Source of the DNA: a virus
Lineage: Duplodnaviria; Heunggongvirae; Uroviricota; Caudoviricetes
IMG/VR virus record: IMGVR_UViG_2537561670_000003
Span: 1-43,311 of that record
Direction: 5' to 3' (one strand)
Length of the DNA stretch: 43,311 nucleotides
Shown: positions 3,840 to 29,128 of the stretch, piece after piece
Layout: each line of letters opens with the position of its first letter
Numbering within the stretch: position 1 is the stretch's first letter
Notes under the pieces: model-generated
The model's database searches: none
The model's input: only the letters and a program-made list of their open reading frames with translations
What the model was told of the DNA's origin: nothing
Program-made: the position numbers and the translations under genes

Positions 3840-6800
3840 TTAACCTGTGAATGAACCAGATCCGTGTGATACTATGATAGTAGGCGAAGAAATTGACGCA
3901 CCCCTGTTATTTTGAGCGGACACTTTAATACGCACTGTTACGTTTGGACCTGTTACAACCGCAGAATGCATGATAAGTCTCTCCATGTCTTGCACGGATG
4001 AACCACTCTCATTGCCGTTAATGTCGATTGTTCCTGCACCATTACCTTTAACGTTTGCTATAACACAGACGTGTCTTGCGTGCCCAGAACTGGATGAATC
4101 ATTATAAGTCATTACCTTTTCTAAATATCCGTCACTAGACCGACTCACATTCGTCCCTGTGTGCATATTTGCAATGTCCCCGATAAAACTTTGGGCTTCC
4201 ACAGTCCCTTTGAATTTACCGCTTGTTGCTTGGATCTCACCAGTAAAGCTACCGCCACTAGCATATACTACACCTCTGACGGTCACATTGTTGAATTCAG
4301 CATCTCCAGCTTTATTCAACTTCCAACCAGCAGAACCAGCTGCATAGTTGTTGGACTGGATATAGTTACCGATTTTTGCGTTCTCAATGGTGCCGTCCTG
4401 GATGAAGCTGGCCCGGATGAATGTCTGCCCGTTCTGGATCACGAACGGCAAAGCTACGCTATTTCCGGCTGCCGTGGTGACGGCGAAGCGGTCAGCCAGG
4501 AAGATAACCTGCGACTGCATGCCGGATGGCGTATTCTCCACGCCGATACCCATCCCCGCGGCGTAATACTGCCCGTTGCTGGAGACACCAACCTTGATGT
4601 TGTACATCGCGCTGAGTTCGCCATTAACGTTGGCTATAGCCTGAGCGTTAGTGGTGATGGCGGAGGTATGCCCGTTCACGGTCGCCGTGATGCCGTTTAT
4701 CTGCGTGGCGGTGGCCTGCTGATAGTCGGAGAGCGTCTGATTCAGGCTGTTGATGGATGCCTTGTTGCCGTTGACGTCCGTCTGCAGGCTCAGCAATGAA
4801 CGTGCTGTGGCTTCCTTCTCACTGACGATCACCTCGTCGAGACGGTCCAGATTCGCGCTGTTGCCGGCGACCGATGCAGAAAGGGTTTTACGCGTGGCCA
4901 CCTGAGCGAGGTTGGCCTGGATTATCGCAATTGCAGAGTTCTTCACCCCGCCCGTCATGCCGTCCATAGAAACGCTGATGTTGTCGATTCGCTGGCCCAG
5001 GGCGGTATCAGCCGTCGCAACGGTCTGCTCAAGCTGACTGAGTGAAGACGAAACATTCCCGACCGTGCTGGAAAGCTCATTAACGCTGGTCTGAACCTTC
5101 CCGACGTCCTGGGCATTTTTGGCGATATCTTTCGCTTGCTGCTCCAGTTCGTCGTTGGCCTGTTTGATATCGTTAGCCATGCCAGCAATTTTTTCGTTGC
5201 TGTCCACCGCGTTCTCGATCAGGTCTTTGAACGTTTCCGACTCTTTCATATCCTCCAGAATGTCATTAGTTATTTCGCTGACATCTATCGAGGACGTGCC
5301 CATGATCCAGTCGGTCCAGTCCCCGGCGTTACCGATACGGTCAATCAGGCGCGCGCGGTACCACTGGCGAACGCCGGCAGGCATGGGGCCATGCTGATAA
5401 TCTGCAGCCGGGTACGGCACCAGGACCAGCAGTTCAGGATTGGCGTAGTCGGCAGTTGTGGCGCGCTGAATCTCTGTATAGGCCGTGTCGCCTGAGCCAT
5501 CCGGAAATTTCCAGGTCAGGTCGATATGCCAGACCACATCTTCGGTCGCCAGGAAGTTGAGCGGAGTACCCGGTTTTCCCGTTTTACCGGAGAGATAAGT
5601 TGTTTCACCGTATCCCCATGGTGACGACGTATCCTGCGCATTCAGCGCCCGTACGCGCACGTCATAGCTGCCCGAATAAATGCCCTGAACCGAGAAACCC
5701 TGCGCGCTGGTAACCGGAACGTTTATCCAGTCCCCGTTGTCCTTACGCCACTGGGCAACATACCGGATTGCGCCCTCTACCTTATCCCATGACACGTCCA
5801 GGCTTGCTACAGTCAGCCCCTGAGACACATGATCGCTCTCAGTCACCACGATATTCTTCGGAGCAGACAGGACGCTTATCGGCGTGACGGTGATCGGGGG
5901 AGACTCGACCCGAACGCCGTCATCGATGTAACGATATTTGTTTGGATCGTGCTGAACGGCCGTAATAGTGAAACCGCCTGTACTGTCGTCGTTAGCCGCG
6001 ATTGAGGTGACCCTGAAGTACTGTATTGCGAGGTTATCACTGTCTATCGCCCAAACAGCGCCCGCCACAGGAACCTGACTGAATGCCGTAGCCACCGTCA
6101 CCGTTTTTTTATCGGCGCTCACCGCGCTGATTGTCCGCGTCTGGGCTTTTCCGTCGGGAAGGTTAACCACCAGCCGGTCTTTCGCCGCGTAGTCTATTTC
6201 TCGATCGAGGGTAATTTGGCGGCCGTTGGCCGCGCTTATACGGCCCCCGTTCTCCTTACCAGAGCGGAAAGGATCGGCGACACCGATAATTTCAGCGGGC
6301 AAAGGGATATAACCGTCCAGCCCCACGCCAAACGATACGGTCCCGTCTTTGGCATTGGAGAGCAATACCCAGCGACCGCGTCGGTGCGCTTCACTTTGCG
6401 AGGTGCAGCCGATTGCGGTCAGGGACGTCTGCCGGACGTCGTAACGTTCTACAAGCGCCGAATCGTAAACCCCCTCAACGGTATCGCTGTAATGGTTCTG
6501 CGGATCGGACCAGGACACCAGGCAGGAGCTGTAGCGATTCTTGTATGAGCCGCCCGCATAAGTAAACAGCCCATCGATAACGTTTGAGACGTTATAAACC
6601 CAGTCAACATCGTCCTGCGGGACGTCTGCCTGGACATAAATCTGATCGTTTCCCCAGAACGTTATTCCACGAAATACCGCGGCGAGATCGTTAAGTACCT
6701 GCCAGGCGTCCTCCTGGCTCTGAATGAAAACGTTGCAGGTGAAACGCGGTTCGGTGCCACCGGCCCCGTCGGAAACCATTTCGTCACAGTACTGGGCGAT

Positions 6801-7766
6801 TGAATACAGCGCCCACTTATCCACCATGGACGCATCCACGCGCGTGCCCATGCCGTAAATTTCATCCAGAACCAGATCGTAAAAGATCCAGGCAGGGTTA
6901 TTGGACCATGCCATTTTGAACCCGCCGGACCATGAACCAGAATAGGTTCGGGTTTTCGGATCGTAATTATCCGGAACCTTAATCAGCTTGCCTTTTATCT
7001 TACAGGTCACTTTCGGCGCGCTGCCGTTGAATTGGCTGCTGTCCACTTCGACATACAGGAGCGCTGTTAAAGGATAACGAAGCTTGCTGTCGATGACTTC
7101 CGCATACGAAAACACCTTGAAGGCGTTAACCAGTTTCGAATTTGATCCGCTGGCATCAGCCGTAATACGCCTGACCCTGACAGACCAGCCGGACGTGGAT
7201 TTTGGCAGATCGATACGGTGGTCACGCTGATATTCCGTCGTGGTCTTTCCGTCAAACTTGCCGTTTACAACCGTTTTCCAGGCGCCGCCGTCCGTTGATA
7301 AATCGATCGCATACTCGGTGACCGTGCCCACCATATCGCCATTATCTTTATAGAGATACTGGACCGGAAGGCTGAGCTTGATACGGATGGCATCCAGGGA
7401 AAGGTTTGTAAACTGGCGCGTCCAGGGCGCGGTGGTGGTGACAGTTGTGCCCACGGCCAGCTCGTTGTCGACCTGGGGCATCCCGGCAATATAGGTCTGG
7501 TCCTGTGTGCCCTTGCGGAACTCCCATTTCACGCCGCTGAAGTTGTATTCCCCGCTGTCGTTTGCCAGCGGCGTATCGTTGAGAAAAATGTTCTGAGCGG
7601 TCAGGTCGCCCTGTATTTCCCCCTCAGAAACGGCAATGAGCATTTTTAATTTTGCGACCGACAGCAGATCGTCAGGCTGCTCAACCGGAGTATGTGAACT
7701 GCCACCTCCCCCTTTGGCACCCTGCAGGATGGTTTCTTGTTTAAGAAGCTGCATTTTTTCACCCAT
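3840..7766 (-). CDS. J: Tail tip / host specificity protein J (central tail fibre)
   Basis: About 1300 aa. Conserved gpJ blocks (e.g. WALYSIAQYCDEMVSDGAGGTEPRFTCN..., FTITAVQH) compared with lambda J (recalled). Divergent C-terminal receptor-binding end. Alternative start at 7754 has better SD spacing. Confidence 0.9.
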   Translation of the reverse strand: MGEKMQLLKQETILQGAKGGGGSSHTPVEQPDDLLSVAKLKMLIAVSEGEIQGDLTAQNIFLNDTPLANDSGEYNFSGVKWEFRKGTQDQTYIAGMPQVDNELAVGTTVTTTAPWTRQFTNLSLDAIRIKLSLPVQYLYKDNGDMVGTVTEYAIDLSTDGGAWKTVVNGKFDGKTTTEYQRDHRIDLPKSTSGWSVRVRRITADASGSNSKLVNAFKVFSYAEVIDSKLRYPLTALLYVEVDSSQFNGSAPKVTCKIKGKLIKVPDNYDPKTRTYSGSWSGGFKMAWSNNPAWIFYDLVLDEIYGMGTRVDASMVDKWALYSIAQYCDEMVSDGAGGTEPRFTCNVFIQSQEDAWQVLNDLAAVFRGITFWGNDQIYVQADVPQDDVDWVYNVSNVIDGLFTYAGGSYKNRYSSCLVSWSDPQNHYSDTVEGVYDSALVERYDVRQTSLTAIGCTSQSEAHRRGRWVLLSNAKDGTVSFGVGLDGYIPLPAEIIGVADPFRSGKENGGRISAANGRQITLDREIDYAAKDRLVVNLPDGKAQTRTISAVSADKKTVTVATAFSQVPVAGAVWAIDSDNLAIQYFRVTSIAANDDSTGGFTITAVQHDPNKYRYIDDGVRVESPPITVTPISVLSAPKNIVVTESDHVSQGLTVASLDVSWDKVEGAIRYVAQWRKDNGDWINVPVTSAQGFSVQGIYSGSYDVRVRALNAQDTSSPWGYGETTYLSGKTGKPGTPLNFLATEDVVWHIDLTWKFPDGSGDTAYTEIQRATTADYANPELLVLVPYPAADYQHGPMPAGVRQWYRARLIDRIGNAGDWTDWIMGTSSIDVSEITNDILEDMKESETFKDLIENAVDSNEKIAGMANDIKQANDELEQQAKDIAKNAQDVGKVQTSVNELSSTVGNVSSSLSQLEQTVATADTALGQRIDNISVSMDGMTGGVKNSAIAIIQANLAQVATRKTLSASVAGNSANLDRLDEVIVSEKEATARSLLSLQTDVNGNKASINSLNQTLSDYQQATATQINGITATVNGHTSAITTNAQAIANVNGELSAMYNIKVGVSSNGQYYAAGMGIGVENTPSGMQSQVIFLADRFAVTTAAGNSVALPFVIQNGQTFIRASFIQDGTIENAKIGNYIQSNNYAAGSAGWKLNKAGDAEFNNVTVRGVVYASGGSFTGEIQATSGKFKGTVEAQSFIGDIANMHTGTNVSRSSDGYLEKVMTYNDSSSSGHARHVCVIANVKGNGAGTIDINGNESGSSVQDMERLIMHSAVVTGPNVTVRIKVSAQNNRGASISSPTIIVSHGSGSFTG

Positions 7767-18531: not shown

Positions 18532-20031
18532 TTACTTTTTGCGCTGGCTTTCGGACGGTGGCGCGCCCGGTTCTTTGGCTTCGGCACTGGTGCCTCCTTT
18601 ATCATTGGCGGGGTCGGTGTCAAACACCAGGCCCTGTTCACGGTTCTCGTCAACCTCAGCTTTACGGCGTGACTTAACATCATCCGGGTTGCGACCGCTG
18701 GCACGTATCCAGTCGGATTCAGTAGCAGCACCGCCGCGGATCTGCGTTTTCCAGGCATTCGCTTCTTTAACGGGATCAATCCACGGCATAACGGGCCCCG
18801 AATAAACCGCGTTATAAAGCGAGTCCATATCAATGCCTCTCGGCAGCTTGATTTCTCCGGCAGCAATAGCCATCTTGAGCCAGGCTCGGTACATGGGCCG
18901 GGTCACTGAACCGATGAACCAGTCCTGAAGAATCAGATAGCCGTCGGTTGACTCGACAAGCTCCTGCCGCTGGGCACTGTACGTTCCGTTGTAGTTTCTG
19001 GATGTGCTGGAAAAGCTGAGGCGACTGCCGGCGGACACGGCACGCAGCTGTCCGTTACGAAAAGATTCGAGGTTAGGGTTCGGGCGATCGGATTTAATCA
19101 TCCCGATTTCTTCCCCGGCCTGCAGTTCGTCATAGAGCATACCGGGCTGAATCATCAGCTCGCGGTCATCGCTGCTTGAATCAGAATCGAAGCTCTGTCC
19201 GTCGCCTTTTTTGATATACATGCCGAGTGCCGCAGCAATTCTGGCAGCAGTAAGCTCCGAGTCCTCGTATTCTTTCAGCGCGCTCAGACGCATCAGAACA
19301 CCAGACAAAAGAGACGTTCCGCGGGTCTGGTGCAGGCGTCGGGTGAATTTGAGATGCAGCATGTTCTCTGCATCTATCTCTTTGGTATCAAACTGACGCC
19401 CGGATACTGGCAGGCTTTTATAGACCTGATATTTTTTCGGGCGTCCCCAGTTATCGACAAAAACGCCCTGATTGAGCTGGGTGGCAGCATCGCTGTTCAT
19501 CGGCACAAAGTCCGGCTCCAGCGCTTCCAGCCAGAACGGCACGCCAGCAACCGGCTGAAGACCATTTCCGGTACCGCGAACCAGCTGAGCAAATACCTCA
19601 CCGTCCCGGAGCCACGTTCGCAGCATCAGCCGCTCCAGCATTGGGCGGGTAAACTGGGTTGTGACATCTGGCCTTACGGACCATTCGCCCCACTTTCGGC
19701 GGATATCAGTGGCCAGCTTTTTAGCGATCTTCCCGTTACTCAGCATCGGATGCGGTTCAACTATGATGCCCTTCGCACCCACCACCCTTTCTTCCAGCTT
19801 GTCGAAAACGCCGATCACCAGATCGTGGTTGTTATCCAGCCAGCGCGCCTGCTGCCTCAGCGAAACCGCCCCCATCTGGCTGAGCTGATCGGCTGAACGA
19901 TTTTCCTTCTGGGCTTTGTGGGTACGCGTTTGCTTTACCGCCTCATACGCTTTAATAACTGCGCGGGCACGCAGGCGTGAGGCTTTCCAGCCTGGTGAAA
20001 ACAGGCCAATCGCATCATCTAAAAAACTCAT
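18532..20031 (-). CDS. B: Portal protein (lambda gpB family)
   Basis: 499 aa, located between W and the protease-capsid gene, as in lambda. Confidence 0.8.
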   Translation of the reverse strand: MSFLDDAIGLFSPGWKASRLRARAVIKAYEAVKQTRTHKAQKENRSADQLSQMGAVSLRQQARWLDNNHDLVIGVFDKLEERVVGAKGIIVEPHPMLSNGKIAKKLATDIRRKWGEWSVRPDVTTQFTRPMLERLMLRTWLRDGEVFAQLVRGTGNGLQPVAGVPFWLEALEPDFVPMNSDAATQLNQGVFVDNWGRPKKYQVYKSLPVSGRQFDTKEIDAENMLHLKFTRRLHQTRGTSLLSGVLMRLSALKEYEDSELTAARIAAALGMYIKKGDGQSFDSDSSSDDRELMIQPGMLYDELQAGEEIGMIKSDRPNPNLESFRNGQLRAVSAGSRLSFSSTSRNYNGTYSAQRQELVESTDGYLILQDWFIGSVTRPMYRAWLKMAIAAGEIKLPRGIDMDSLYNAVYSGPVMPWIDPVKEANAWKTQIRGGAATESDWIRASGRNPDDVKSRRKAEVDENREQGLVFDTDPANDKGGTSAEAKEPGAPPSESQRKK

Positions 20032-20267
20032 CCAAACCTCGCCAGCCTGTAGCCGGGTCGCCCACGGCGTTTGTTATTGAGCGTTGCCAGTCGTCGCTCC
20101 CATTCCTGACGGCCTTTTCTGATTTCCGACAGGTTTTCGAGCGTCATCTGCTGCCCGTTGAAAGTGATTGATTTCCCCTCCAGAACAGACAGCTCGGCTG
20201 CAGCATAGCGGTCGATCATGTTTTGAATATCTGCTGGATTCACACCCAACCTCCTGACGAAGACCAC
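20028..20267 (-). CDS. W: Head-tail connector protein W-like
   Basis: 79 aa between terminase A and portal; C-terminal RRGRPG resembles lambda gpW (recalled). Confidence 0.55.
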   Translation of the reverse strand: MVFVRRLGVNPADIQNMIDRYAAAELSVLEGKSITFNGQQMTLENLSEIRKGRQEWERRLATLNNKRRGRPGYRLARFG

Positions 20268-22960: not shown

Positions 22961-23013
22961 GTGGCAGGGTCCCCCTCCGGGAGTACCTTTTGATAATAAT
23001 TATCAATTGCACA

Positions 23014-23742
23014 CTATCGACGGCACTGCTGCCAGATAACACCACCGGGGAAACATTCCATCATGATGGCCGTGCGGACATAGGAAGCCAGTTCATCCAT
23101 CGCTTTCTTGTCTGCTGCCATTTGCTTTGTGACATCCAGCGCCGCACATTCAGCAGCGTTTTTCAGCGCGTTTTCGATCAACGTTTCAATGTTGGTATCA
23201 ACACCAGGTTTAACTTTGAACTTATCGGCACTGACGGTTACCTTGTTCTGCGCTGGCTCATCACGCTGGATACCAAGGCTGATGTTGTAGATATTGGTCA
23301 CCGGCTGAGGTGTTTCGATTGCCGCTGCGTGGATAGCACCATTTGCGATAGCGGCGTCCTTGATGAATGACACTCCATTGCGAATAAGTTCGAAGGAGAC
23401 GGTGTCACGAATGCGCTGGTCCAGCTCGTCGATTGCCTTTTGTGCAGCAGAGGTATCAATCTCAACGCCAAGCGTCATCGAAGCGCAATATTGCTGCTCA
23501 CCAAAACGCGTATTGACCAGGTGTTCAACGGCAAATTTCTGCCCTTCTGATGTCAGAAAGGTAAAGTGATTTTCTTTCTGGTATTCAGTTGCTGTGTGTC
23601 TGGTTTCAGCAAAACCAAGCTCGCGCAATTCGGCTGTGCCAGATTTAGAAGGCAGATCACCAGACAGCAACGCGCCACGGAAAAACAGCGCATAAAGCAC
23701 TTCATTAGCAGCGCCAGATAGCGTAATGATTTTGTTACTCAT
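23014..23742 (-). CDS. Hypothetical protein (last late-operon gene before cos)
   Basis: 242 aa from the ATG at 23742, which has an AAGGAA SD 8 nt upstream. No recognisable family. Confidence 0.5.
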   Translation of the reverse strand: MSNKIITLSGAANEVLYALFFRGALLSGDLPSKSGTAELRELGFAETRHTATEYQKENHFTFLTSEGQKFAVEHLVNTRFGEQQYCASMTLGVEIDTSAAQKAIDELDQRIRDTVSFELIRNGVSFIKDAAIANGAIHAAAIETPQPVTNIYNISLGIQRDEPAQNKVTVSADKFKVKPGVDTNIETLIENALKNAAECAALDVTKQMAADKKAMDELASYVRTAIMMECFPGGVIWQQCRR

Positions 23743-24127
23743 GGAATATTTCCTTTTAGGCGTGAGCCTGTCGCACGGCAATGCCGCCCGAGAGGTAAAC
23801 GCAACCTAACGGCATCACCCAGGCTCACTACTGAAAGACTCTCTTTGATGTGCGCGTGCGATGCGCGTAGAAGACTGATTTATCAACCTGTCTTTATATC
23901 AGGATTCATTACCTGACTATTTGTGGGTAAAGTTCGTAGTGCGCTGATCGTGCAAAATGATTTTAGTTGGGAACAGTTCGCAACTCTGTCCCATAAAAAT
24001 CAGCATATTCCCATCTATCCCATATCCAGCGCATTGACCATCGGGATACTGAAGGGAGATTCCATCATCTCTTAGAAAGATCACCATCTCTTTTGTTTCA
24101 ATTTGCATATAGCTACCTGGAGGATTT

Positions 24128-24742
24128 ATGAATGCAAGGATTTTCATGGACTATTACCATGAGATTGATTTTCCATCTTTATTCGCGAGAGCAGTGGAAA
24201 GCGATGACGATGTGGGTACTACATTGCGCATTCACCTACTTTGTGAGCGCATGGTCGAAGCATGGATATGCGCATGCTGTGACTGCCAAGATCTCTTTGG
24301 AAGAGATAAAAACAAACTTTTAATCGAATGTAATACTAAAATATCCATGGCGGGAAACCTGGGAATCCCCCCGGAACTTATGAAATCACTTAAAACCATC
24401 AACTCAATGCGTAATGACCTTGCACACAATCCATCAATACAAAGCATTGCTGATTCAAGGATCCAGAGCCTGAAGGATACTCTGACTGAATACTTTAAAC
24501 AGCATCCAACGGAACCCAGCATGGAAGAATCAAAACTGGGTATTTTTAACGCCGAGAATCAATTAACCGAAGAAGTTTCCTTAGATAGTGACAGTTCAAA
24601 AAACAGACTTAAGTTAATCTTGCTGTTCAGCAAGTTAATGCAGGCGTTAATGCAATTAGTTGCAGCTAATCATAATGGGCGCTGGGATAACCAATTTAGC
24701 CAATTCGTTTACCATGTGACCATGAACGCAACAAAGAGATAA
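24128..24742 (+). CDS. Hypothetical protein with Rx4H (HEPN-like) motif; moron on opposite strand to late operon
   Basis: 204 aa; GGAGG SD 5 nt upstream; AT-rich flanks; motif R95-N-D-L-A-H100. Convergent with the minus-strand small gene, with hairpins between them. Confidence 0.55.
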   Translation: MNARIFMDYYHEIDFPSLFARAVESDDDVGTTLRIHLLCERMVEAWICACCDCQDLFGRDKNKLLIECNTKISMAGNLGIPPELMKSLKTINSMRNDLAHNPSIQSIADSRIQSLKDTLTEYFKQHPTEPSMEESKLGIFNAENQLTEEVSLDSDSSKNRLKLILLFSKLMQALMQLVAANHNGRWDNQFSQFVYHVTMNATKR

Positions 24743-24810
24743 ATCCAAGCCCGTTTTGTACGGGCTGTTGCATTATCACAGGCACTCAGTGAATGCCTGC
24801 TGTAATGCCG

Positions 24811-25008
24811 CTAGTCGTCGAGTTGCAACACACCGTGATCCAGTGATTCTGAATAGGCGATAAGTCCGGTATAACCGGGGATAATCTCACCATTATCAGC
24901 TTCAAATTCAGGAATTGTGCCGGTGGTGATGGTGTATTGAGGCTGGCCATCTTCCTTCGCGAAGGCTGCCAGGTCTTCAATCTGCTTAGCTGTAAGAACT
25001 ACTGTCAT
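24811..25008 (-). CDS. Small acidic hypothetical protein
   Basis: GAGGA SD 6 nt upstream of the second ATG (MTVVLTAKQIEDL...), downstream of Rz. Confidence 0.4.
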   Translation of the reverse strand: MTVVLTAKQIEDLAAFAKEDGQPQYTITTGTIPEFEADNGEIIPGYTGLIAYSESLDHGVLQLDD

Positions 25009-25221
25009 GCTCATTCCTCAGTTGTAAAAAAGCCCCGCGAGTGCGAGGCGATTTGATTGAATTCTCGGCTCTTATCTCAGCGCAGCCCCTTACTGCGTGC
25101 CGGTTGCTCGGTGATGAGCATCAGCGATGAGACATTAAAGCCGACCGAAGGCCAGCGGCGTTCCTCATGTTGCCGACAGAGCCATATCGACAAGAGGACG
25201 AAAACTAGCAGCATGAATCGC

Positions 25222-25725
25222 CTATTGGTTATTCGACAGTCGCACTGATTCGTAAATCCGCTCACACGTCATTCCTGCCCGGTAGCTTTCGTCAGATCGT
25301 CCAGCATAATATCGAGCTGCTTCTGCAAGGCTTCCGAGCATGTCGGCAAGCATTGCTGCGTTGGCTCCGGCTGTTTTGCTTCTGACGGAAGTGGCGAGAT
25401 CTGCGGTGTGCTTTGCGGCGTCCATGTGGGTAGCGAGTTTTGTTGCTTCGGCGCGCAGCTGCTTAACAGTGGTAGCCAGGCCAGCAGAAGTAACGGCAGC
25501 GCTCGCTGCTTGAGCTTGAGCATCTTTAACGGCCTCATCCCGGGCGATTGTTCGCCCTTGTTCAATCATACGAGCTGCGGTCTGTGCATTCGCTTCCTGT
25601 GAAGATTCCGCGCTATCCCGGTCAGCCCACTTTATTTTCCAGCTGCGGTTCGTCCACTCACTGCCAGCGAGAAACGAACCTACCAACGCAACAATCACAA
25701 TGATGCAGATGCCACCCGGCTTCAC
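25222..25725 (-). CDS. Rz: Spanin, inner membrane subunit (Rz-like)
   Basis: N-terminal transmembrane segment ICIIVIVALVGSFLAG then coiled-coil Ala/Gln-rich region. GTG start overlaps the endolysin stop (GTGA). Confidence 0.65.
   Translation of the reverse strand: MKPGGICIIVIVALVGSFLAGSEWTNRSWKIKWADRDSAESSQEANAQTAARMIEQGRTIARDEAVKDAQAQAASAAVTSAGLATTVKQLRAEATKLATHMDAAKHTADLATSVRSKTAGANAAMLADMLGSLAEAARYYAGRSDESYRAGMTCERIYESVRLSNNQ
25269..25523 (-). CDS. Rz1: Spanin, outer membrane lipoprotein subunit (Rz1-like), embedded in Rz in another frame
   Basis: Signal peptide plus lipobox LLSSC and a proline-rich mature part; lies wholly inside Rz. Confidence 0.6.
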   Translation of the reverse strand: MLKLKQRALPLLLLAWLPLLSSCAPKQQNSLPTWTPQSTPQISPLPSEAKQPEPTQQCLPTCSEALQKQLDIMLDDLTKATGQE

Positions 25726-26665: not shown

Positions 26666-27718
26666 TTATGATTTTTTCAGTTTTTCCACCTCTTCGGTGG
26701 TCTGTATAAACCTGTCTGCCTCCAGTTCTACGCCGATCGCCCGACGGCCAAGTTCTATTGCAGCTTTCACAGTTGAACCAGAGCCCATAAAGAAATCGGC
26801 AACGATATCCCCCGGTCTGCTGCTGGCGCTAATGATCTGTTTCAGCATGTCGGCAGGTTTTTCGCATGGATGTTTGCCTGGATAAAACTGAACAGGCTTA
26901 TGTGTCCATACGTCGGTATAAGGAACAAGAGCGGAAACAGAGAAGCAGCGCCGAAGGATTTTGTATTCCTCCAGCAATTCTGAATACTTGCGGTTTAATG
27001 ACTGGTAGGTAGCCACCAGCTGGTGGTGAGGATGTTCAAGCTTTTGCTGAATATGTTTATCGATGGCGATCCGCGTGAACAGTTCCTGCAATTTTCGATA
27101 GTCCACTTCATTCGGTAGTTGCCATTGGCTTGCACCAAACCAGTGTGACGCCATGTTTTTCTTTCCGGTTGCCTCAGCTATTTCTTTCGAGCTGACACCC
27201 AGTGATTCACGGGCATTACGGAAGTAATCAATCAGCGGCGTCATAATGTGCTGCTTTAGCTCTGTGCTTTTCCTTTCGTAAACATCCTCTTTACCTGTAT
27301 ACGGTCCAAGATAGTGCTCAGCAAACAAAATCCGTTCCGTAGATGGAAAGTACGCACGCAGGCTTTCTTTATTACATCCATTCCAGCGGCCCGATGGTTT
27401 TGCCCAAATGATGTGATTCAAAACGTTGAATCGGGCGCGCATCATAATCTCTATATCTGAGGCCAGTCGGTGACCGCAAAACAGGTAGATGCTGCCAGCA
27501 GGTTTAAGAACGCGAGCATACTCAGCCAGGCAGCTATCAAGCCAGCGTAAGTAGTCCTCGTCCCCCTTCCATTGGTTGTCCCAGCCGTTGGGCTTCACTT
27601 TGAAGTACGGAGGATCCGTAACTATAAGATCAATAGAGTTATCCGGGAGGGTGGCGACGTAATGCAGACTATCAGCGTTGATTAACTCAACACTGTTTAT
27701 TTTTACAGTATTTTTCAT
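26666..27718 (-). CDS. Orphan DNA methyltransferase (beta-class N6A/N4C, DPPY motif)
   Basis: LIVTDPPYF motif plus C-terminal AdoMet-binding DFFMGSGST; no adjacent restriction endonuclease gene. Confidence 0.85.
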   Translation of the reverse strand: MKNTVKINSVELINADSLHYVATLPDNSIDLIVTDPPYFKVKPNGWDNQWKGDEDYLRWLDSCLAEYARVLKPAGSIYLFCGHRLASDIEIMMRARFNVLNHIIWAKPSGRWNGCNKESLRAYFPSTERILFAEHYLGPYTGKEDVYERKSTELKQHIMTPLIDYFRNARESLGVSSKEIAEATGKKNMASHWFGASQWQLPNEVDYRKLQELFTRIAIDKHIQQKLEHPHHQLVATYQSLNRKYSELLEEYKILRRCFSVSALVPYTDVWTHKPVQFYPGKHPCEKPADMLKQIISASSRPGDIVADFFMGSGSTVKAAIELGRRAIGVELEADRFIQTTEEVEKLKKS

Positions 27719-27868
27719 AGATCAGTAAGCGTAACTCTGATAGGCTCACGTTGCTTTTGCGCTAAAGCAGTGGGCCTTGGTTAGCTTGTGACCTGAAAGC
27801 ATGAGCTGATGGCTGGCCGGGTGCGCTAACACCCACCAGCCGCCCATTTCCACAGCAGAAAACCCCCA

Positions 27869-28060
27869 TTACTGGAGGCGTTTATAACATCCGAACTGGT
27901 AATCAGATAACCCCGCCATCACCAGCTGCGTAAGTATGAGCTGGCAACGTTCGTGGCTGAGGTGGGTATTCTGTGCAATCTCCCCAGCCGTTGCTGGTTT
28001 ATCGCTTAATTCATTGAAAACAGCCTTTGCCGTTTCTGTCATATCTTCCTGATTTAGCAT
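27869..28060 (-). CDS. Small hypothetical protein (possible winged-helix DNA-binding)
   Basis: 63 aa, upstream of and co-oriented with the methyltransferase gene. Confidence 0.4.
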   Translation of the reverse strand: MLNQEDMTETAKAVFNELSDKPATAGEIAQNTHLSHERCQLILTQLVMAGLSDYQFGCYKRLQ

Positions 28061-28182
28061 GTCTTTTACCTAAAATTAGTTGCGTGACATACAGATAACT
28101 CTGGTTGGTGATACCAGCAAGAGAAGAATTTGATTCTGCAACCAACAAGGCCTTTAGGCATCAGGCAGGAATGAGATGCAAT

Positions 28183-28204
28183 AAAAAAACCACCCGAAGG
28201 TGGT
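28183..28204 (-). terminator. Rho-independent terminator downstream of peptidase gene
   Basis: Minus-strand hairpin ACCACC-UUCG-GGUGGU followed by seven U residues, about 25 nt after the peptidase stop. Confidence 0.5.
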
Positions 28205-28228
28205 CTTATATGAATCTTTAACGCGGAC

Positions 28229-29128
28229 TTAGCAAATATTCCACATCATCGTACTACCGTTATGGTTTTCGATAATTTTTGCGGCTGGGCTAGTACCAAA
28301 AGAGTGCATATAGCAATGATGAATAGTAAGGACCAGATCCTGCAACGTTTGGTCACTCTCTAGCTCCATGATATTTAAACCAATATTTTGAGCTTTGTCC
28401 AAATGAATATGTCTGGCATGTGCATACGTTGCTTGGTGGTTGTTTAACTCATCACATATACGCTTAGCCTTAGCTTCAGCGTCAGCCTGACCTGCGAACA
28501 TACCAGTACAAAGCCATTTCTGGACAATTTCGTTCGCCCAGAGAATTGCTTTTTCACACTCGCCAATCAACGTTGGATTTAGTTTTTGGAACGTAAATTG
28601 CCACCATTGCAGTGCAGCAGGGTTGGCAAAAATTTCCGCTTTTGCTCTCTCATACTCCTCAATAATTGCATGAGATGATAACCCATTAAACTGTGGATCA
28701 ATTGGCCCCAAGTTCGACTGTTTACCTAAAACGATCTGCTCAGCACAACAAGCAAGCATTGTGCCACAACTCATTGAAATCATAGGTACAATCGCTCGGA
28801 TATTGGTTCCGAACTTTGAACGAAGATAATGACCAATTGATTCTAGAGCTGCGATATCGCCTCCAGGAGTATGGAGTAAGATATCCAATCCCAGACTCGT
28901 ATCTAACCCATTGATAGCAGACATAAGACCATTTTTATCATCATCTGACATCTGGATCAGATGTTGAAACCCAGGCCCCCCTTTTTGAAGGAAGCCTGAG
29001 TAATAAGAAATTACATTTCGGCCAGTATGTTTCGATAAATCACGTAAGTACTTGTGGCGAACCTCATCCGCTGGTGTACGTTGAGCGATAGTACCCATCT
29101 CACCCAATACGTCTATCCAATTTGGCAT
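28229..29128 (-). CDS. ClpP-fold serine peptidase (S49/SDH-like)
   Basis: Motifs LLHTPGGDIAA and ISMSCGTMLAC resemble ClpP-fold oxyanion-hole and nucleophile-Ser regions; low-GC gene in an AT-rich island. Confidence 0.55.
   Translation of the reverse strand: MPNWIDVLGEMGTIAQRTPADEVRHKYLRDLSKHTGRNVISYYSGFLQKGGPGFQHLIQMSDDDKNGLMSAINGLDTSLGLDILLHTPGGDIAALESIGHYLRSKFGTNIRAIVPMISMSCGTMLACCAEQIVLGKQSNLGPIDPQFNGLSSHAIIEEYERAKAEIFANPAALQWWQFTFQKLNPTLIGECEKAILWANEIVQKWLCTGMFAGQADAEAKAKRICDELNNHQATYAHARHIHLDKAQNIGLNIMELESDQTLQDLVLTIHHCYMHSFGTSPAAKIIENHNGSTMMWNIC

Follow-up and report, generated by a model that had tools for sequence, protein, structure and literature searches.

A HepS-like HEPN gene with a conserved divergent partner at the lysis-cos junction of phage phi80 and of an Escherichia coli Nissle 1917 prophage

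Gene organization at the locus

The stretch of DNA analysed here, referred to as the window, comprises 43,311 nt and represents a lambdoid prophage of Escherichia coli Nissle 1917, in which Q and the holin, lysozyme, Rz-like and terminase genes, as well as the head and tail genes, are all encoded on the minus strand. The open reading frame (ORF) at 24128–24742 lies on the plus strand and is thus transcribed against the late operon, as an earlier note on this DNA had claimed. The ORF is real, and its 204-aa translation is as described there. Its product, WP_000993911.1, is a homologue of phi80 gp52 and, as outlined below, a HepS-like single-domain HEPN protein. The strong Shine-Dalgarno sequence ascribed to the gene can be read as GGAGG at 24119–24123 of the plus strand, 4 nt before the ATG, and is kept by the homologue in a Citrobacter prophage (L024). 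The GC content of the ORF is 40.5% as compared to 51.6% for the whole window and 53–56% for the lysis and terminase genes. Low GC is present, as the note held for the flanks of the gene, but the AT-richness is that of the ORF itself and of a small neighbouring ORF and not just of the flanks.

The gene had further been placed between Rz and cos, at the position of lambda bor. This location was confirmed; however, the ORF does not directly adjoin either end, as one 67-aa ORF separates it from Rz, while a 63-aa ORF and a 242-aa ORF resembling gp59 of phage N15 (23017–23742, minus strand; phi80 gp49; phrog_17079) lie between it and cos. The gene resembles bor in being a moron between Rz and cos that runs against the late operon, whereas its product is soluble and helical and Bor is a lipoprotein. 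Homology to the Bor lipoprotein was discarded, since the protein matches no Pfam family at E-values up to 1 and its fold is that of HEPN proteins.

RefSeq labels the protein in Nissle as hypothetical, PHROGs assigns it to a family of unknown function, and no experiment on it was found in the literature. It has no NCBIfam match, and a single-sequence phmmer search against the PDB returned no match. In PADLOC, weak matches to CARF-HEPN profiles were the only ones obtained; they cover residues 43–122 and fall into the HEPN end of those profiles. At the level of the family to which the gene belongs, no Pfam, NCBIfam or PADLOC-2023 model provides coverage.

The 69 nt between the stop codon of the HEPN gene and the convergent 67-aa ORF contain two strong hairpins, which fits an insulated moron. 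The first, GC-rich hairpin (AGCCCG-7 nt-CGGGCT, 24748–24766) begins 5 nt after the stop codon and is a probable terminator between the convergent transcription units. The second, long hairpin, revealed by folding at 24769–24811, is located directly 3' of the 67-aa late-strand ORF and includes a 40-bp element (24770–24809) that several Klebsiella phages and one Elizabethkingia phage share at 100% identity. In Klebsiella phage ST846-OXA48phi9.2, this element again immediately follows the 3' end of a small gene (DUF2560) located between lysis and terminase genes; it resembles a conserved terminator or a sequence at a mosaic boundary. RNA folding of 24738–24815 yielded −31.4 kcal/mol (z −4.4) for the plus strand and −35.9 kcal/mol (z −6.8) for the minus strand. 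Rfam gave no structured RNA match at E-values up to 1 within 23500–25300.

A scan of 23600–25300 for sigma-70-like promoters yielded no site, compared to 3.0 in shuffled sequences. Likewise, a search across loci upstream of the HEPN gene found no conserved strong −35/−10 pair, the best manual candidate agreeing at 8 of 12 positions. Because no sigma-70-like promoter was detected, expression of the HEPN gene in the lysogen is to be regarded as putative. Any promoter of this gene must sit inside the coding sequence of the divergent 63-aa ORF, hereafter called the partner.

Several further features of the window deserve mention. RefSeq classifies the portal gene (18532–20055, minus strand) as a pseudogene 'missing N-terminus'. 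Between Q and holin, at 26666–29128 of the minus strand, additional moron-like genes are present, among them a DNA methyltransferase gene (26666–27718, minus strand) and a 299-aa ORF (28229–29128, minus strand) in a low-GC stretch (~41–43%, 27950–29000). RefSeq calls the latter ORF as 28229–29098 and names it 'SDH family Clp fold serine proteinase'; its locus is possibly another accessory or defence locus.

Distribution and mobility

The 1.6 kb around the HEPN gene match the E. coli Nissle 1917 chromosome at 100% identity, and positions 22991–24811 of the window share 97.4% identity with the right end of phage phi80. The same gene is annotated there as gp52 ('hypothetical protein') and resides between rha and the N15-gp59-like gene next to cosQ. 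Of 5426 complete E. coli genomes, 80 contain the cassette at an identity of at least 99%. The carriers are largely Nissle derivatives and cloning strains with phi80dlacZdeltaM15 (DH5alpha, NEB5-alpha, XL10-Gold, EPI300, HST04). In the cloning strains just named and in GB2005, the phi80dlacZdeltaM15 remnant contains the HEPN gene together with the partner sequence at 99.9% identity; the DH5alpha copy of the HEPN gene is located at 3646170–3646784 of NZ_CP045741.1 (L033 7212–7826). Several cloning-strain records leave the small partner unannotated. Among 185,579 species-representative genomes, a single one has the locus, in Pantoea. The HEPN gene is an accessory gene that is rare overall but disproportionately present in laboratories.

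As judged by blastn, the partner and the HEPN gene move as a unit of ~1 kb that spans approximately 23822–24811 and takes along both 3' flanks. That is, window positions 23822–24807 align at 75% to the Citrobacter prophage mentioned above, whose flanking genes differ, and the homology between the window and phi80 stops at 24811. Sites at which the module has been inserted include the junction of lysis genes and terminase genes of several types, the interval between tail genes M and L, and positions beside gpM and beside the major tail gene. Every close homologue with readable context is found in a siphovirus-type prophage and is antisense to the late genes. A segment of ~135 bp at 23735–23868, comprising the start of the gp59-like gene and its leader, has a 78% identical copy upstream of rha in phi80 and also recurs in many mEp and other lambdoid phages; it is likely a recombination linker between late-region modules.

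Bury et al. reported that lambdoid prophage 3 of Nissle adds resistance to lambda beyond that provided by the repressor, via an unidentified factor (PMC5987069). In the same study, no Nissle prophage was inducible, and lambdoid prophage 3 was judged inactive or defective (PMC5987069). If the window is prophage 3, the HEPN gene is a concrete candidate for this factor.

The divergent partner gene

The partner gene (23917–24108, minus strand) encodes 63 aa, belongs to phrog_20632 and is called 'Fur-regulated protein' in some records. Its start codon and that of the HEPN gene are 19 nt apart and face in opposite directions; an alternative 76-aa form of the partner would start at 24147. Conservation at the protein level reaches down to ~32% identity, with A27, Y29, G33, G40, P47, D54 and R56 being invariant. 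Adjacency of the two genes was checked from both sides, that is starting from the HEPN protein and from the small protein. In all eight contexts in which the HEPN homologue was at least 36% identical or was found via the partner, the partner was adjacent and divergent. In viral contigs, the partner was intact at 27 of 28 loci, the 28th carrying a frameshifted remnant. At this one locus (L060 3650–4030), the partner is frameshifted while the adjoining HEPN gene is intact and 63% identical to that of the window. Unless the frameshift is a sequencing error, this speaks against an essential antitoxin function of the partner. More distant HEPN relatives without a partner were also found (L028, L032, L035, L037). 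At all loci whose surrounding genes were examined, the partner points the same way as the late or tail operon, against which the HEPN gene runs.

AlphaFold2 (AF2) models the partner as a four-strand beta-meander (pLDDT 81), for which no informative structural neighbour was obtained. The partner does not resemble the trigger region of J introduced below. Regulation by Fur, as implied by the name, was not borne out: the best Fur-box-like site nearby agrees at 12 of 19 positions, a score that is reached 47 times in the window, and the literature gives no explanation of the name. The best Fur-box-like match of the window (22986–23010, 15 of 19 positions to GATAATGATAATCATTATC) lies close to cos, where a gap separates the gp59-like gene from the small terminase gene, and is not near the partner.

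Motif conservation and fold of the HEPN protein

The motif R95-N-D-L-A-H100, encoded at 24410–24427 of the plus strand (CGT AAT GAC CTT GCA CAC), had been put forward as the minimal HEPN signature, and the translation confirms it. Taken alone, an Rx4H motif carries no significance, as 19 of the window's 54 stop-free stretches with a length of 150 aa or more contain one, corresponding to ~0.31 per 204 aa. The motif stands above chance because it is conserved across relatives. Close homologues of the HEPN protein form 19 clusters, all from Enterobacteriaceae, and in their alignment (A1) R95, N96, A99 and H100 are invariant, as are R34, H36, E40, R41, E44 and W46. An exhaustive HMMER search with A1 retrieved 210 cluster representatives at E-values up to 1e-3, nearly all of which are standalone proteins of 170–215 aa. 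The motif R[NDHQ]x3H, mostly in the form RNxxAH, is present in 160 of 168 retrieved relatives. In a broad family alignment of 136 diverse sequences (A3), the positions conserved to at least 90% are H36, E40, K71, R95, N96 and H100, and no others. The protein thus has the Rx4-6H motif with a polar residue after the arginine that characterizes the HEPN superfamily.

AlphaFold2 with the family alignment predicts a one-domain helical bundle (pLDDT 86.5, pTM 0.83) with a beta-hairpin at residues 137–150 and a C-terminus that is predicted to be disordered (residues 189–204), as is also seen in apo-HepS. In a Foldseek search of the PDB, the top four matches correspond to both structures of HepS from the Salmonella prophage Gifsy-1, with a probability of 1.00, TM-scores of 0.48–0.57 and 188–198 aligned columns. 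The predicted all-alpha bundle can be superimposed on solved HEPN domains, and the matches of family members, all of them weak, point for the most part to recognised HEPN families, namely RiboL-PSP, HepT, Apea, CARF-HEPN, Csm6 and Cas13a. The fold is HEPN-like and the motif is conserved among homologs, and the profile and structure comparison to HEPN and Abi families proposed in the earlier note singled out HepS as the best match by both methods. HEPN fold and homology to HepS can be regarded as nearly certain.

HEPN proteins dimerise, which brings two Rx4-6H motifs together into one active site with RNase activity. Known HEPN systems other than HepS differ from the present one in several respects. 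As compared to HepT of the HepT/MntA HEPN-MNT toxin-antitoxin systems (type II/VII; e.g. SO_3166, PDB 5yep, 7ae2), the protein is larger and has an extra beta-hairpin and C-terminal helix, and its partner is a divergently encoded 63-aa beta-meander and not an MNT nucleotidyltransferase. Identity with HEPN-MNT systems was rejected, as the neighbouring 63-aa and 67-aa ORFs give no MNT match and the HEPN protein shows no significant sequence match. In contrast to the CARF-HEPN proteins Csm6 and Csx1 of type III CRISPR systems, a CARF sensor domain and a CRISPR context are both missing; a CARF-HEPN identity was dismissed because the protein is a single 204-aa domain without an N-terminal CARF. PrrC and RloC are anticodon nucleases with an ABC-ATPase N-domain. 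If the protein is HepS-like, it would share their logic, i.e. a latent tRNA-cutting suicide nuclease freed by a phage product, whereas the architecture is unrelated and no sequence or fold match to them was seen.

Relationship to HepS

HepS is STM14_3211 of Salmonella Typhimurium prophage Gifsy-1 and was described by Sargen et al. in Nature in 2026 (PDB 9oij and 9oik; PMC13043305). It forms a tetramer, is expressed constitutively and is non-toxic on its own (PMC13043305). Its trigger is a nascent peptide from the central straight fibre of the siphovirus tail-tip protein J, corresponding to residues 902–933 in lambda with F924 being critical; the peptide is bound via the N- and C-termini of HepS, whereupon two R/H active sites open (PMC13043305). 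Activated HepS cuts the anticodon loops of tRNA-Thr and a few other tRNAs, and infection is aborted (PMC13043305). Gifsy-1 avoids its own HepS because its J protein has Ile instead of F924 (PMC13043305). The homologue set of Sargen et al. comprises 393 proteins that are standalone, at most 250 aa long and without additional domain; for HepS and close homologues no conserved partner gene was reported, i.e. they are 'solo' (PMC13043305).

Viral contigs yielded the sequence of HepS (210 aa; R100, H105), while a 48-aa HepS fragment had no match in the phage collection or the protein index. The A1 profile identified HepS as the best sequence match in the PDB (E 7e-4), and alignment of A1 with the HepS alignment gave a probability of 85%. 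The relationship became stronger with A3, which detected HepS (9oij) in hmmsearch with an E-value of 1.2e-18 at positions 12–139 and in hhalign against the HepS alignment with a probability of 98.8% (E 1e-16, residues 7–127). The alignment obtained by pairwise BLASTP was confined to 30 residues surrounding the motif (47% identity). Since the profile methods are significant, homology to HepS is established; the sequence relationship to the Gifsy-1 protein thus exists at the profile level.

Both proteins are prophage-encoded single-domain HEPN proteins of ~200–210 aa, and the structural match covers nearly the full length. The RNxxAH motif is at the same place in both, R95-N96-x3-H100 aligning with R100-N101-x3-H105 of HepS, and the preceding helix-turn 'K-I-x-x-A-x-x-L-G-(I/L)-P' and a glutamate in helix 1 are conserved as well. 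With 204 aa and no other Pfam or NCBIfam domain, the protein stays within the size rule of the HepS family, and it is carried by the Nissle prophage, phi80 and siphovirus-type prophages of Citrobacter, Enterobacter and others.

However, overall identity is only ~15%, and the N- and C-terminal sensor segments of HepS do not align with those of this protein. Consistently, S13, D15, S202 and T203 of HepS, which bind the trigger, have no demonstrable counterparts. N101 of HepS corresponds to the conserved N96, whereas the counterpart of the tRNA-contacting K71 of HepS is not conserved. Of the tetramer-interface residues of HepS (F66, K78, L83), the alignment pairs L83 with the nearly invariant L78 and K78 with S73; as to the switch residues, I107 aligns with P102 and Y20 falls near Y9/Y10/E12. 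The loci also differ: the gene studied here is located at the lysis-cos junction or in the tail operon, antisense to late genes, whereas hepS of Gifsy-1 lies between replication and antirepressor genes. Finally, the 63-aa divergent partner is strictly conserved here, whereas upstream of hepS in L004 a partner-like ORF is absent. Because of this conserved partner gene, we file the clade as a HepS-like sister clade and not as HepS orthologues, and for the same reason regulation may differ from that of HepS.

The resident J protein and the gp59-like protein

The J proteins of the Nissle prophage (3843–7766, minus strand; 1308 aa) and of phi80 (L034 16630–20208; 1192 aa) are identical in the central-straight-fibre segment. 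Both have Phe at the position of lambda F924 (GQTFIR), the phi80 segment that aligns with residues 902–933 of lambda J lying around DRFAVTTAAGNSVALPFVIQNGQTFIRASFIQ. That is, the carrier phages keep the HepS-activating state, in contrast to the silent Ile of the Gifsy phages. Given the Phe in the resident J, a HepS-type J sensor would be expected to respond to the very phage that encodes it, but phi80 is fully viable. This suggests either a different sensor target or a separate mechanism of self-protection. Its orientation and the antisense geometry make the partner a candidate for avoidance of self-killing. If the window is prophage 3 and therefore perhaps defective, self-targeting would be irrelevant in Nissle but not in phi80.

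The gp59-like protein next to cos, which is encoded on the late strand, contains a segment resembling the central-straight-fibre region of J, the trigger region of HepS. It matches Pfam Phage_Tail_Tip with an E-value of 5.6e-5, just above the curated cut-off, and BLASTP aligns it with residues 1033–1132 of this prophage's J at an E-value of 2e-4 ('FELIRNGVSFIKDAAI' versus 'PFVIQNGQTFIRASFI'). With hhalign against an alignment of three J sequences, the match is weak (5% probability, E 0.0075). The gp59-like gene also neighbours the cassette in one further locus (L061), and mEp213 and mEp043, which lack the HEPN gene, contain DNA similar to the 5' end of the gp59-like gene. On the basis of these similarities, the gp59-like late protein could act as a decoy for HepS-type sensors.

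Discussion

Taken together, the gene is best described as encoding a HepS-like HEPN abortive-infection nuclease of a distant sister clade with a conserved small partner. The proposal that it is a prophage-encoded defence or toxin gene gains support from the HEPN fold, the homology to HepS and the carriage by prophages, and an anti-phage Abi function of the HepS kind is reasonably probable. Nuclease activity via R95 and H100, dormancy, trigger-dependent activation and an abortive outcome would be expected by homology to HepS. In this scenario, the lysogen probably produces the HEPN protein in the form of an inactive oligomer, until a protein of a superinfecting, probably long-tailed phage would bind and switch it on. 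The active enzyme would then cut cellular RNA, which in the case of HepS means tRNA anticodon loops, thereby stopping translation and phage assembly. The N- and C-terminal sensor regions of HepS cannot be aligned with this protein, and it is rather doubtful that both the trigger (J) and the target (tRNA-Thr) are the same as for HepS. A non-catalytic HEPN-fold protein of the MtlR/YggD type with a binding or regulatory role would be an alternative to a nuclease, to which we assign a very low probability.

The conserved partner raises the question whether the two genes form a toxin-antitoxin-like pair for addiction or stabilisation, composed of a constitutively active HEPN RNase and a 63-aa antitoxin and operating independently of phage sensing. 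We consider this unlikely. The genes are divergent and not co-transcribed, which is atypical for type II systems, and an antitoxin of the MNT type is absent. An intact HEPN gene next to a frameshifted partner and the distant relatives that do without one also speak against it, as does HepS, the closest solved relative, being non-toxic alone (PMC13043305). Moreover, carriage in DH5alpha-type strains implies that the HEPN gene is not constitutively toxic. Most plausibly, the partner modulates the nuclease, e.g. by silencing it when the resident prophage goes lytic. The location of the HEPN gene, always within late regions, be it at the lysis/packaging junction or between tail genes, as well as the lack of a detectable lysogen-type promoter, would also be compatible with a role in the phage's own cycle, such as RNA processing or degradation during lytic growth or regulation of late transcripts. 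However, the gene is always antisense to the late operon and hence cannot be expressed by late transcription. Its moron-like low GC content and the two strong hairpins in the gap to the convergent late-strand ORF further disfavour such a role, and its rare, patchy occurrence is the pattern of an accessory and not of a core gene. In view of this evidence, a function in the phage's own cycle appears highly improbable.

Within the preferred reading, i.e. an abortive-infection nuclease of the HepS kind, the partner may be accommodated in a two-gene system, in which the lysogen makes the nuclease and the 63-aa protein is a late-expressed self-immunity factor, antisense late transcription adding to the silencing of the nuclease while the phage synthesizes its own tail tip. 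Only transcription of the late or tail operon would allow the partner to be read, and the partner would lie antisense to the 5' end of the nuclease gene. We put this model forward tentatively and rate its chances as modest at best. If true, it would represent a second, previously undescribed answer to self-targeting, a problem which Gifsy-1 meets by mutation of J.

The HepS kind of nuclease has been known since January 2026, and the two-gene architecture, the hosts and the self-targeting question are what is new here, which amounts to a moderate novelty. If confirmed, the HepS mechanism would extend to a distant clade that is present in phi80, in the phi80dlacZdeltaM15 remnant of DH5alpha/DH10B-type strains and in the probiotic strain Nissle 1917, all three of which are in very wide use. 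Phage plating, screens for phage defence and expression of phage tail genes could all be skewed if standard cloning hosts harbour a hidden Abi nuclease. Finally, the strictly conserved partner together with the Phe residue in phi80 J makes it directly testable how a prophage escapes its own Abi system.
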